A DNA stretch of 64,000 nt from an uncultured Acidimicrobiales bacterium (lineage in GTDB: Bacteria; Actinomycetota; Acidimicrobiia; Acidimicrobiales; SHLQ01): the NCBI GenBank assembly GCA_964562985.1, contig CAZLWE010000004.1, positions 17,338 through 81,337 of the forward strand, read 5' to 3'. Shown here piece by piece: positions 40,426 to 41,679 of the stretch (the stretch's first letter is position 1; each line of letters opens with the position of its first letter). Both the position numbers and the translations under genes were made by a program. Under the pieces are notes generated by a model, which was not told the DNA's origin, did no database searches, and saw only the letters and a list, made by a program, of their open reading frames with translations.

Positions 40426-41679
40426 CTAAGGAGCGAGCACGTTCATGGCCTCAAGGGCACGGGCGTGACATGTCGGCCATTGAGTGTTCGGTCGGGTGGC
40501 TTCCCACCAGACGAAAGTGACTTCGTCTTGCACGTCCGTCGGAACGAGATGTGGCAACACGCCGTCGTACTCGGGGAATCCTGCGCGAACGGTCGCAGCG
40601 TTCCAGGTAGCGGGCAGCCATTGCACGCCACCGAAAAAGCCGTTGCCCGTGTTGATGTCGTGGGTGTTGGTCGATTCGCAGAACAACATTGCGTCGAGAC
40701 CAACGTCGGTGAGGAGCGGCCATCCGAACTGGTTCGTTCCTTGGGGAGCTTGCGATGCGGGCACGGGAGCGCCGGTCGGTGGCGCAACAGGTCGGCTGCC
40801 GAGGCCAGGTGCTGGTGCTGGGGTAGGCGCCGGTTCTGGTGCTGGTGCCGGTTCTGGCTCAGCGTCGGGAATCTCCGGGGTGTCTTGCTCACCGGTGAGG
40901 GCCTCTCCGTCGAAGTCGAGCTCGCACGTGCGGTAGCCATCGCCATCGGAAGTATCGCAACGGTCGATTCCGTGACTTCCGATCAGCGTGTCGATCCCGG
41001 CGTCTCCGTCAATCGTGTCGTTGCCGCGTCCACCAGAGATGCGGTCATTGCCGTCATCGCCGGAGATGGTGTCGACAGCCATGCCGCCGAAGATCTCGTC
41101 GTCGCCTGGGCCGCCGGCGAGACTGTCTTGGCTGCGATGGCCACGAATGCGGTCGTTCCCTTCGCCACCGAATATCACGTCTTGGCCGAGGTTGCCGAGA
41201 AGCACGTCGTTGCCGGTCTCTCCGGAGATCCGGTCGGCCCCGGCATTTCCGCGAATGCGGTCGTTGCCGCTGTTGCCGACGATGTTGTCGTCGTTTCCGC
41301 CGCCTTCAGCGCGGTCATCGCCAGCGCCGAGGGTGATCTGGTCATCGCCGAAACCGCCGTCGACTTCGTCGTCTCCATCACCAGAGTTGATGATGTCGTT
41401 TCCGTCGCCACCGCAGATCACATCGTCACCGCCTGCGCCGGTGATGATGTCGTCACCGCCGAAGCCGATCATGAAGTCGCGGCTGACATTGCCGCCGGTC
41501 ATTACGTCGACACCCTCGGTTCCGAGCTGAACACGGAAGCCCTGAGCTTCGGCTTCAGCAACGGTGATACCGAGGCACGAGATCGACTCGTCTTGGGCAC
41601 CAGCAGGAGCGGCAGCTAGCACGGTTGTGGAGAGAACAGCGAGTGCGACACAAGCCGCACGGAGCGGAGAAACTGACAT
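40426..41679 (-). CDS. secreted protein: RTX-type Ca-binding repeats + Pro-rich linker + C-terminal Rpf/transglycosylase-like domain
   Basis: Signal peptide after ATG at 41679 (AVLSTTVLAAAPAGAQD). About 20 GGxGxD nonapeptide-type repeats. The C-terminus (CESTNTHDINTGNGFFGGVQWLPATW...WPTC) resembles the Rpf catalytic domain. Confidence 0.7.
   Translation of the reverse strand: MSVSPLRAACVALAVLSTTVLAAAPAGAQDESISCLGITVAEAEAQGFRVQLGTEGVDVMTGGNVSRDFMIGFGGDDIITGAGGDDVICGGDGNDIINSGDGDDEVDGGFGDDQITLGAGDDRAEGGGNDDNIVGNSGNDRIRGNAGADRISGETGNDVLLGNLGQDVIFGGEGNDRIRGHRSQDSLAGGPGDDEIFGGMAVDTISGDDGNDRISGGRGNDTIDGDAGIDTLIGSHGIDRCDTSDGDGYRTCELDFDGEALTGEQDTPEIPDAEPEPAPAPEPAPTPAPAPGLGSRPVAPPTGAPVPASQAPQGTNQFGWPLLTDVGLDAMLFCESTNTHDINTGNGFFGGVQWLPATWNAATVRAGFPEYDGVLPHLVPTDVQDEVTFVWWEATRPNTQWPTCHARALEAMNVLAP

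Follow-up and report, generated by a model that had tools for sequence, protein, structure and literature searches.

A conserved Acidimicrobiales protein that joins an RTX beta-roll to an Rpf-like transglycosylase domain

What is the role of an RTX repeat array that lies behind a Sec-type signal peptide and ahead of an Rpf-like muralytic domain? The question is raised by an ORF of the minus strand (40426..41679) in the window, i.e., the whole 64-kb stretch of DNA that was analysed. The ORF list and the sequence place its ATG start and its stop codon within this interval. The sequence-only reading had described the product as an RTX beta-roll of about 230 residues, a Pro/Ala linker and a C-terminal Rpf-like domain, preceded by a Sec-type signal peptide. 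This architecture is borne out. Both domains exceed their Pfam gathering scores, the roll module covers aa 29-258 when both caps are included, the region of ~aa 259-300 is rich in Pro, Ala and Glu and predicted to be disordered, and the beta-roll is N-terminal to the catalytic domain. The parts of the 417-residue protein follow the order signal peptide, N-terminal cap, 20 RTX repeats, C-terminal cap, linker and Rpf-like domain. The features of the locus are:

40426..41679, minus strand: complete gene of the RTX beta-roll/Rpf-like fusion, 417 codons plus stop; Pfam matches for both domains; 47 full-length homologues with 51-86% identity
41596..41679, minus strand: Sec-type signal peptide, aa 1-28, read from the sequence by eye as MSVSPLRAACVALAVLSTTVLAAAPAGA followed by QD
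41494..41595, minus strand: N-terminal beta-roll cap, aa 29-62, modelled with a short helix (40-45) and a strand (49-52) at pLDDT 93-97
40954..41493, minus strand: 20 tandem RTX nonapeptides, aa 63-242, defined by the 9-residue register, the HemolysinCabind match and the model
40906..40953, minus strand: C-terminal beta-roll cap, aa 243-258, pLDDT 95-96, with invariant C241 and C252
40780..40905, minus strand: flexible Pro/Ala/Glu-rich linker, ~aa 259-300, gapped and variable in alignment columns 390-445
40429..40779, minus strand: Rpf-like transglycosylase domain with a conserved N-terminal extension, aa 301-417, defined by PF06737, the alignment and Foldseek
41763..41792, minus strand: conserved cis element GATTGTTTCATTTCTGTTACGGAGTGCTAC upstream of the fusion gene, with three tandem G(T/A)AAC-type repeats on the plus strand

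A longer reading frame from a TTG at 41790 is unlikely because the homologues begin at the equivalent Met and because the conserved non-coding element occupies 41763-41792. The AlphaFold2 model of the fusion protein has a mean pLDDT of 88 (~96-97 for the beta-roll and ~86-94 for the Rpf domain), and its pTM of 0.61 indicates no defined contact between the two. The structure prediction that had been proposed as a check returned, by Foldseek, the CyaA RTX domain, the ice-binding protein MpAFP and Rpf catalytic domains. Three Cys pairs are invariant in the homologue alignment, which fits with an oxidising extracytoplasmic location.

The region from aa 63 to aa 242 consists of 20 consecutive GGxGxDxUx units with zero indels and matches the Pfam family HemolysinCabind (E=4.9e-31, 106.7 bits vs a cutoff of 23). 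The 20 nonapeptides are predicted to form a 10-turn Ca2+-binding parallel beta-roll, which is modelled with one strand per 9 residues. Asp6 is 95-100% conserved in each repeat of the homologue alignment, and the repeat number is fixed at 20 in 45 of 46 homologues, down to ~51% identity. Individual repeats hold conserved residues of their own (e.g., C89, 100%; F170, 95%; P191, 93%), while tandem repeats at the DNA level are weak (two copies of 27-bp period with 68-80% matches). These two features argue against a recent repeat expansion and show that the array is old. The exposed position 9 is far more conserved on even-numbered repeats (mean entropy 0.99 vs 2.07), so one face of the roll is constrained. 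Residues S152, F170, A188, S206 and D224 belong to it. This face could equally serve intramolecular stability or oligomerisation instead of docking.

The invariant columns of the N-terminal cap and roll are C35, A43, G47, G53 and C89. The invariance of the cysteines makes a Cys35-Cys89 disulfide probable, and Cys241 of the last repeat is, on the same ground, probably bonded to Cys252. The linker that follows the C-terminal cap differs in length and sequence among homologues and has pLDDT values below 50 at 274-283 and 287-291 (within 274-291), as predicted for a disordered segment. Note that the linker DNA has a weak 6-bp periodicity at 40808-40857.

The carboxyl terminus matches the Pfam family Transglycosylas (PF06737) at aa 328-404, covering model positions 7-77 of 77, with E=9.2e-09 and 36.3 bits vs a cutoff of 27; 46 of the 47 homologues carry the precomputed PF06737 flag. 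The sequence-only reading had made its assignment depend on such a match and on the alignment of the catalytic Glu. The domain passes the gathering score, and Glu335 (codon 40675-40677) lines up with the Glu in the CES motifs of RpfE and RpfC and with Glu292 in the CEA motif of RpfB. The motif CES...INTGNGFFGGVQW...ATW...WPTC that it had recognised is found as described and corresponds, position by position, to the stretch around the catalytic Glu in the Mycobacterium tuberculosis RpfE, RpfC and RpfB structures. Residues E335, C334 and C404 are invariant in 47/47 sequences. The latter two match the Rpf-type Cys pair (WPTC aligns to WPVC of RpfE), which is the predicted disulfide of the domain. 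Foldseek superimposes the model on 4emn (TM(target) 0.80-0.81, rmsd 2.2 Å), 4cge (0.83, 1.9 Å) and 4ow1 (0.78) with a probability of 1.00. Membership in the PF06737 family is thus documented by the score, the catalytic Glu, the Cys pair, the fold, which resembles c-type lysozyme and lytic transglycosylases, and the secreted actinobacterial nature of the protein. The scores are far below the cutoffs of the NCBIfam equivalogs Rpf (NF046106, 38 bits vs 180) and RpfC (NF046107, 26.8 vs 200), so the product is named an Rpf-like transglycosylase-domain protein and not a resuscitation-promoting factor. The role first suggested for the protein, that of a resuscitation factor whose folding or anchoring depends on Ca, is plausible.

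The comparison with RpfB, RpfC and RpfE of M. tuberculosis (4emn, 4kl7, 1xsf, 4ow1, 4cge) shows the same fold (TM 0.80-0.83, rmsd ~2 Å), the C-E-(S/A) catalytic Glu, the NTGNGxxGGxQ...TW motif of the substrate groove and the Cys...WPxC pair. All are secreted actinobacterial proteins of modular organization with an N-terminal accessory part. The fusion differs in that identity is only ~35% across ~80 residues and in two elements typical of an Acidimicrobiales-type subfamily, namely a conserved N-terminal extension of 25 residues (PVPAxQAPQGxNxFGWPLLTD) and a helix at the C-terminus (HxxALEAMNVLAP). Its accessory part is an RTX beta-roll, unlike the LysM, DUF348/G5 or Pro/Ala-rich regions of known Rpfs. 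The same Rpf subtype is also found in short secreted forms, with a C-terminal TM anchor, or with long C-terminal or Pro/Thr/Ala-rich N-terminal extensions, which shows that the accessory part is interchangeable.

The fusion family, which is specific to a single lineage of uncultured and apparently marine Acidimicrobiales, comprises 47 protein clusters and one divergent singleton. It is represented by 26 loci in 25 species genomes, essentially all of Acidimicrobiales (Acidimicrobiales/Acidimicrobiia MAGs), where the gene is nearly always single-copy. Gene order is conserved in all 23 informative loci and also around the divergent member P0125, and the orthologue has been inherited vertically. 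A search with P0125 found no RTX-Rpf clusters outside the known family, and HMMs built from the family matched no second copy or other RTX or Rpf gene in the window. A word-index search with the C-terminal domain alone gave four short fragments only and was superseded by an exhaustive search of representatives. The gene forms a monocistronic unit that converges on its downstream neighbour and diverges from a thiolase gene. The syntenic block beside it codes for AstE/AspA-like, RimK-like, MarR, YceI and glyoxalase proteins. A functional link to this block was considered and set aside: its genes, of metabolic or regulatory function, are convergent or belong to other transcription units, so their proximity is treated as positional conservation only.

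The 30-bp element found upstream of the fusion gene is a probable promoter/operator. It is followed directly by a -10-like hexamer, TACCGT (41760-41765). In the window and in 26/26 related loci it occurs once per locus and always upstream of the fusion gene; it was not found elsewhere in the ~330 kb scanned and is unique in the window, where 0 occurrences are expected by chance. The element resembles MtrA-type operators, judging from its repeats, which read as possible tandem G-T-(A/G/T)-A-C-type half-sites about one helical turn apart in the putative promoter of an rpf-like gene. The window site differs at 3 positions from the Corynebacterium glutamicum MtrA consensus (A/G)TAACAAT-N3-(A/G)TAACAAT, with 0.18 such matches expected in the whole window, and across loci the match is loose (2-7 mismatches of 16). 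There are three repeats here and two in MtrA operators, the third being at 10-bp spacing, so that one of the two spacings is 10 and not 11 bp. In C. glutamicum rpf2 is a known MtrA target (PMC3353115). No mtrA gene was seen in the window. For related loci such as L010 and L022 a leaderless transcript is predicted. The interval 40300-42100 showed no excess over shuffled sequence in a generic promoter/terminator scan. A ydaO/c-di-AMP riboswitch has been reported for some rpf genes. A leader riboswitch of this kind is ruled out here by the lack of an Rfam match, whether in the 600 bp upstream of the gene with the threshold relaxed to E<=10 or at gathering score in 11 related loci.

The signal peptide features an n-region with R7, a 17-residue hydrophobic core and a cleavage site after AGA and before QD. 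Neither a lipobox nor a twin-Arg motif was seen by eye in aa 1-28. An equivalent n-h-c region ending in (A/V/S)xA-Q is found in 26/26 related loci. The proposal that the array is not a type I secretion system (T1SS) module withstood the search for its partners. No genes coding for ABC, MFP or OMF components were found among the neighbours or large ORFs of the window, whose sole ABC ATPase is of the oligopeptide-importer type, and none for an ABC exporter, MFP or OMF in the flanks of three related loci (L027-L029). The protein has no C-terminal secretion signal, its C-terminus being the folded enzyme domain that ends in NVLAP. The RTX domains exported by T1SS (CyaA, 7usl, 7rah, 6sus and 5cvw; serralysin/alkaline protease, 1sat and 1kap) also consist of GGxGxDxUx nonapeptides and share the right-handed parallel beta-roll, predicted for the fusion, with caps that close the repeat block at its end. 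CyaA RTX ranks first among the PDB entries in sequence (E=6e-34), and it also ranks first in the Foldseek structure comparison. In contrast to these domains, the fusion roll is N-terminal to the functional domain and placed behind a cleavable Sec signal peptide, is not accompanied by a C-terminal secretion signal or T1SS genes, and forms a single unbroken 20-repeat block with invariant Cys in both caps. Among the features that characterize RTX proteins, the fusion thus has the (predicted) nonapeptide beta-roll and lacks the signal-peptide-free N-terminus, the C-terminal signal and the linked T1SS genes. Known RTX blocks emerge C-terminus first and their folding is nucleated by the C-terminal cap, whereas Sec exports proteins N-terminus first; the folding pathway of a Sec-exported beta-roll may therefore differ.

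The reading favoured here, with a probability of about 0.6, is that of a Sec-exported, extracytoplasmic peptidoglycan glycosidase of the Rpf (c-lysozyme/lytic-transglycosylase-like) type whose Ca2+-folded roll serves as a docking or stabilising module. Its components, namely Ca2+ binding, Ca2+-dependent folding, docking, muralytic activity and MtrA-like control, are all functions that we infer. The repeat array would be unfolded in the Ca2+-poor cytoplasm, and so a good Sec substrate. After export and cleavage of the signal peptide it would bind up to ~18 Ca2+ ions, one at each turn junction, and fold into a rigid, disulfide-locked rod of ~5 nm. The conserved sheet face may then dock the protein to a wall component or to a partner protein, or at least stabilise it outside the cell. 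The flexible linker of ~40 residues would give the catalytic domain with Glu335 access to glycan strands, which it would cleave as the wall grows, the cell divides or growth resumes. Transcription would be controlled through the conserved promoter/operator that resembles sites of MtrA-type response regulators; these regulators control rpf and other wall-hydrolase genes in other Actinobacteria. In such an organization the RTX roll would take the place of the LysM, G5/DUF348 or SH3-like accessory domains of other Rpf-like proteins.

The R-modules of AlgE4 and AlgE6 from Azotobacter vinelandii (2agm, 2ml1-2ml3) provide, by analogy, the best precedent for a glycan-docking role. They are likewise non-catalytic RTX rolls of an extracellular carbohydrate-active enzyme, match the repeats in sequence (E=2e-5 to 2e-3), bind the polymer substrate and modulate activity. 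They differ in that the roll is C-terminal to the catalytic module, the arrays are shorter, the substrate is alginate and not peptidoglycan, and export from the Gram-negative cell is by T1SS. Region IV of Marinomonas primoryensis MpAFP (3p4g), which is among the top Foldseek matches (E ~7e-4), exemplifies a long, regular Ca2+-dependent beta-helix of which one flat face binds. It differs by its 19-residue turns, its ice ligand, the absence of an enzyme domain and its location in a giant T1SS adhesin.

An alternative, unlikely but the first to be weighed against docking, is that the roll is a Ca2+-stabilised, protease-resistant spacer or solubility module without binding partner in a freely diffusing exo-enzyme, its conserved features merely keeping the rod folded. 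The low pTM and the disordered linker, which point to no fixed relation between the domains, would suit such a spacer, as would the finding that some of the Rpf domain's nearest relatives are short secreted proteins in which no targeting domain can be recognised and that the conserved residues of the repeats are mostly structural Gly, Asp and hydrophobic positions. The selective conservation of exposed position 9 on one sheet speaks against it, and so does the constancy of 20 repeats down to ~51% identity, since a mere spacer should vary as the linker does. At the opposite end stands the proposal, also doubtful and put forward with a little less confidence than the spacer, that the roll is a true Ca2+ switch or a new kind of peptidoglycan or wall-polymer binder. 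The enzyme would then be active only outside the cell in Ca2+-rich (sea)water, docked to the sacculus by its conserved face and under MtrA-like control.

The remaining readings are less probable still and concern what the enzyme would attack, whether it is an enzyme, and how it leaves the cell. One of them is an offensive exo-enzyme or toxin that lyses neighbouring bacteria and recognises them by its roll. RTX modules are typical of toxins and adhesins, and sample names suggest that the lineage lives on surfaces or hosts in the sea, a setting of intense competition. Such a role is improbable for a gene that, with few exceptions, occurs once per genome and in strict synteny with the same housekeeping genes across 25 genomes, with neither an adjacent immunity-like gene nor signs of mobility, and whose upstream element resembles the sites of a regulator in charge of the producer's wall homeostasis. 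Rpf-type domains are, moreover, small glycosidases known for autologous wall remodelling. Somewhat more improbable is a C-terminal domain reduced to an inactive, glycan-binding Rpf-like fold in a structural or adhesive surface protein. The modest Pfam score (36 bits) and the low identity to characterised Rpf domains beyond the N-terminal half would be compatible with it. Against it, the 47 sequences show little or no variation in the catalytic Glu, Cys-Glu-Ser, NTGNG(F/Y)xGxxQW and the disulfide pair, as expected of a retained active site. The protein is, finally, very hard to see as a classical RTX exoprotein exported by T1SS, in spite of the strong sequence similarity of its repeats to CyaA, HlyA-type toxins and serralysins. 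The absence of nearby type I secretion genes and of a C-terminal secretion signal sets it apart from that class, as do the signal peptide kept in all loci, the N-terminal position of the repeats, and a host that is an actinobacterium and expected to be monoderm. Linhartova et al. (2010, PMC3034196) already reported RTX proteins from actinobacterial genomes without T1SS homologues.

The fusion had been called unusual. This stands insofar as the combination of RTX and Rpf is absent from the ten Rpf subfamilies catalogued by Ravagnani et al. (2005, PMC1084345), and full-text literature searches found no published description of it. It does not stand in the sense of a rarity, for the protein is a stable orthologue across a whole Acidimicrobiales lineage and already bears the public annotation 'transglycosylase family protein'. 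The domain combination is real, conserved and so far undescribed, and a variation on a known theme: informative as a variant, it overturns nothing in current understanding and does not amount to a new kind of system. It adds to the list of accessory domains able to target small muralytic domains. It also offers a natural case of a long unbroken beta-roll exported N-terminus first by Sec in an actinobacterium expected to be monoderm, useful for asking if Ca2+-driven folding aids export outside type I secretion. The conserved upstream element provides a testable regulatory link. If the switch and docking proposal were true, a monoderm would have recruited an RTX roll as a functional substitute for LysM or G5, one that is compatible with Sec and stays unfolded until it has been exported, and the MtrA-rpf regulatory link would extend to the deep-branching Acidimicrobiia.

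Among the factors that 'wake up' Actinobacteria and remodel their walls, the Rpf-type enzymes are the best known, and they are used to bring bacteria into culture that have so far resisted it. Acidimicrobiia abound in the sea and in association with marine hosts, yet almost none are cultured. A lineage-specific Rpf-like protein with a putative Ca2+-dependent module is thus a candidate reagent for culturing them. The sample names of the related genomes point to an apparently marine lineage, perhaps living on surfaces or hosts.

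The fusion gene is a minus-strand ORF of 417 codons that occupies positions 40426-41679 as proposed by the sequence-only reading, with its ATG at 41679 and its stop codon at 40426-40428. A TTG start at 41790 is rejected because homologues start at the equivalent Met and the added codons overlap a conserved non-coding element. The features of the gene product and of its upstream region are the following.

aa 1-28: putative signal peptide, with a charged start (R7), a 17-residue hydrophobic core and an A-G-A cleavage motif before Q-D (by eye)
aa 29-62: N-terminal cap, with a short helix and the invariant Cys35
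aa 63-242: repeat array of 20 nonapeptides whose 9-residue register has no break
aa 243-258: C-terminal cap, with the invariant Cys241 and Cys252 at this cap
aa 259-300: Pro/Ala/Glu-rich linker of variable length, predicted to be disordered
aa 301-417: enzyme domain, with a conserved 25-residue lead-in (PVPAxQAPQGxNxFGWPLLTD) and a terminal helix at its end
41763-41792, minus strand: upstream element, with a -10-like hexamer (TACCGT, 41760-41765) directly after it

Both modules claimed for this protein are recovered by Pfam. The RTX array matches HemolysinCabind in five stretches (E=4.9e-31, 106.7 bits) and aa 328-404 match Transglycosylas PF06737 (E=9.2e-09, 36.3 bits versus a gathering score of 27). 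NCBIfam models of RTX toxins and serralysins yield only partial, sub-threshold matches, as do the Rpf and RpfC equivalogs (38 bits versus 180). In a sequence search of the PDB the N-terminal part matches the CyaA RTX domain (E=6e-34) and the C-terminal part matches RpfB/C/E (E about 1e-4 to 1e-5). An AlphaFold2 model built from the family alignment has a mean pLDDT of 88.3, reaching about 96-97 in the roll, which features one short strand per nine residues; its pTM of 0.61 is what two flexibly tethered domains would be expected to give. Foldseek comparison of the roll to the PDB retrieves the CyaA RTX domain along with MpAFP's Ca2+-dependent beta-helix; the C-terminal domain retrieves Rpf catalytic domains (TM(target) 0.80-0.83, rmsd 1.9-2.2 A). 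On every sequence and structure criterion that could be applied, the fusion protein belongs to the Pfam family Transglycosylas (Rpf-like). Its sequence excludes it from the equivalogs of the Rpf proteins that have been characterised.

The evidence best fits a peptidoglycan glycosidase of Rpf type, exported by Sec, with a predicted Ca2+-binding beta-roll as accessory module. The amino terminus has the three-part layout of a predicted Sec signal peptide without lipobox or twin arginine (by eye), and an equivalent signal peptide ending in AxA-Q is found in all 26 related loci. Three Cys pairs are invariant, one per cap region and a third in the enzyme domain, as would suit an oxidising environment outside the cytoplasm. 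RTX repeats lack order at the Ca2+ levels of the cytoplasm and fold cooperatively once Ca2+ is millimolar, a property that makes the module compatible with any export route requiring an unfolded chain. Outside the cell the roll would stiffen into a rod about 5 nm long, its 10 turns each adding about 4.8 A. It may dock onto a component of the wall or onto a partner protein. The R-modules of AlgE epimerases, beta-rolls that bind the polymer substrate of the attached carbohydrate-active domain, offer a precedent for such docking and are sequence matches of the roll in the PDB search.

Several rival explanations, among them an offensive lysin, were weighed against this reading. Secretion as a T1SS substrate would be suggested by the RTX repeats, yet the two defining features of such substrates that were tested both failed, and no gene for an ABC exporter, a membrane-fusion protein or an outer-membrane factor is found within the 64-kb window. 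The protein has RTX repeats yet lies outside the class of RTX exoproteins sensu Linhartova et al. 2010; Actinobacteria with RTX-repeat proteins whose genomes lack a T1SS were already noted in that work (PMC3034196). An inactive, glycan-binding C-terminal domain is an improbable alternative. The motifs of this domain are C334-E335-S, INTGNG(F/Y)xGGVQW, ATW and W-P-x-C404, with E335, C334 and C404 invariant in the family alignment, and E335, the residue singled out as catalytic from the sequence, does align with the region of the catalytic Glu in RpfE, RpfC and RpfB.

The roll could also, less probably, be a spacer only. Asp6 is 95-100% conserved in each repeat of the 47-sequence family alignment, and the repeat count is constant in 45 of the 46 homologues, the remaining one being short by exactly one 18-residue turn. 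Periodicity at the DNA level is almost gone while repeat-specific residues are kept (C89, 100%; F170, 95%; P191, 93% in the family alignment), which argues that the array is old and under position-specific selection. The exposed position 9 has a mean entropy of 0.99 on even-numbered repeats versus 2.07, the even ones being clearly the more conserved, so a constrained surface lies on one sheet of the roll's two. A roll of constant length with one conserved face points to a specific interaction of this module.

The word-index protein search yields 47 clusters of full-length homologues (51-86% identity), both Pfam domains being flagged in 46; past them, it returns RTX-only proteins alone. Where named, homologues are annotated as 'transglycosylase family protein [Acidimicrobiales/Acidimicrobiia bacterium]'. 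The scan of GTDB species representatives gives 26 loci in 25 genomes. MAG_seacave_88 (JBPCTR01) has two copies on different contigs (L009 and L024, which share 58% and 51% identity with the window protein), from either a duplication or a mixed bin. Two loci are filed under Verrucomicrobiales and Chthoniobacterales MAGs (L012, JBLIMK010000003.1; L014, CAXMRH010000171.1). Their synteny is that of the Acidimicrobiales loci and their neighbours are 73-85% identical, so they are probably mis-binned contigs. A protein identical to that of the window is present on two JGI metagenome contigs, whose sample names (BBAY72, LBH21) hint that they come from coastal marine sites.

When the catalytic part by itself is run through an exhaustive HMMER search of 1.84 billion representatives, 312 relatives score E<=1e-3, of which 41 reach E<=1e-10. 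Among the best 150 of the 312, a beta-roll is carried only by the known family and by a divergent singleton of 383 aa (P0125), and a search seeded with the latter added no further fusion clusters. The nearest non-fusion relatives in the same set (45-58% identity in the catalytic domain) include short secreted proteins and a protein with a C-terminal TM anchor; others have long C-terminal extensions or long Pro/Thr/Ala-rich N-terminal regions. Such variation indicates that this Rpf subtype can exchange its accessory part, a known mode of evolution in the Rpf family (Ravagnani et al. 2005, PMC1084345). The RTX-Rpf combination is missing from that subfamily survey and full-text searches found no paper describing it; public databases already hold fusion proteins with both Pfam labels. 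The architecture is real, conserved, lineage-specific and undescribed, and joins two well-understood modules by the usual accessory-domain exchange. The finding would be of greater interest if a Ca2+ switch, a wall-docking role or a link to MtrA were demonstrated by experiment.

Alignment of the 220 nt 5' of the start codons reveals a 30-bp element, GA(T/A)TGTTTCAnTTnnGT(T/G)ACG(A/G)ACTGTTAC, conserved in the window and all related loci. Its degenerate pattern occurs only once in the window, where none is expected by chance, and the derived weight matrix finds exactly one site per locus, always ahead of the fusion gene, with no other site in about 330 kb. The hexamer that follows is of TAnnnT type. 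The element lies about 10 to about 130 nt from the ATG; in four loci the hexamer is 8-9 nt before it, so the mRNA there would be leaderless. No known RNA family matches the leader of the fusion gene. Read on the other strand, the element consists of three tandem repeats, GTAACAGT-nn-GT(A/C)ACnnA-nnn-G(A/C)AACAAT, of a GT(A/T)AC type resembling operators of MtrA (OmpR family). Published MtrA sites follow (A/G)TAACAAT-ttn-(A/G)TAACAAT in C. glutamicum, which has rpf2 among its MtrA targets (PMC3353115), and G/T-T-G/A-A-C-C-N5-G-T-G/T-A-C-N in S. coelicolor (PMC5650626). At <=3 mismatches the C. glutamicum consensus has two matches in the window, including the element, versus 0.18 expected window-wide; across loci the fit of the element is looser (2-7 mismatches). 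MtrA-like control of the fusion gene is a tentative lead; a role of the element as gene-specific promoter/operator is predicted with much more confidence. Note that the second match (63315-63333, plus strand, 3 mismatches) lies among short ORFs downstream of genes for a Fur-like regulator and an ABC ATPase.

The fusion gene is solitary, being convergent with the AstE/AspA-like gene (13 bp between stop codons) and divergent from a thiolase gene. The order Rpf-like, AstE/AspA-like, RimK-like, MarR, YceI and glyoxalase is kept in 23 of 23 sufficiently long related loci and also beside P0125, which identifies positional orthologues and vertical inheritance. The neighbours within this block span 36492-40412 and include an ATP-grasp protein with a TrkA_C domain (RimK-like) and a deacylase (AstE/AspA-like), whose divergent and tightly spaced genes may be a separate functional unit. 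Three loci (L003, at 7241-8803, L006 and L020) carry an insert of 1.5-1.8 kb between the Rpf-like and AstE/AspA-like genes, in which two additional ORFs of 266 and 235 aa lie on the minus strand. At a distance of some 2.5 kb from the fusion gene, a dCache-HisKA-HATPase sensor kinase gene (44212-46149, minus strand) adjoins a sulfotransferase-like gene and a small gene for a stand-alone receiver, which in L027, a further locus examined for its flanks, is a 134-aa Response_reg protein. The receiver is ruled out as regulator at the upstream element because it has no DNA-binding domain.

Elsewhere in the window, two large adjacent minus-strand ORFs (18376-22141; 736 and 500 aa) match no Pfam model at E<=1e-5; in their region G+C is the lowest of the window (0.577-0.586 versus about 0.61 in the remainder) and AT skew is at its strongest (up to 0.17). 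Tandem paralogues on the minus strand (31361-33835 and 33969-36413; 824 and 814 aa) code for fused DAO-FAO_M-GCV_T-GCV_T_C proteins that are dimethylglycine or sarcosine dehydrogenase-like. The 512-aa protein encoded at 56911-58449 (minus strand) has three Big_9/cadherin-like bacterial Ig domains, and is therefore probably another extracellular surface protein of the organism, possibly Ca2+-binding.
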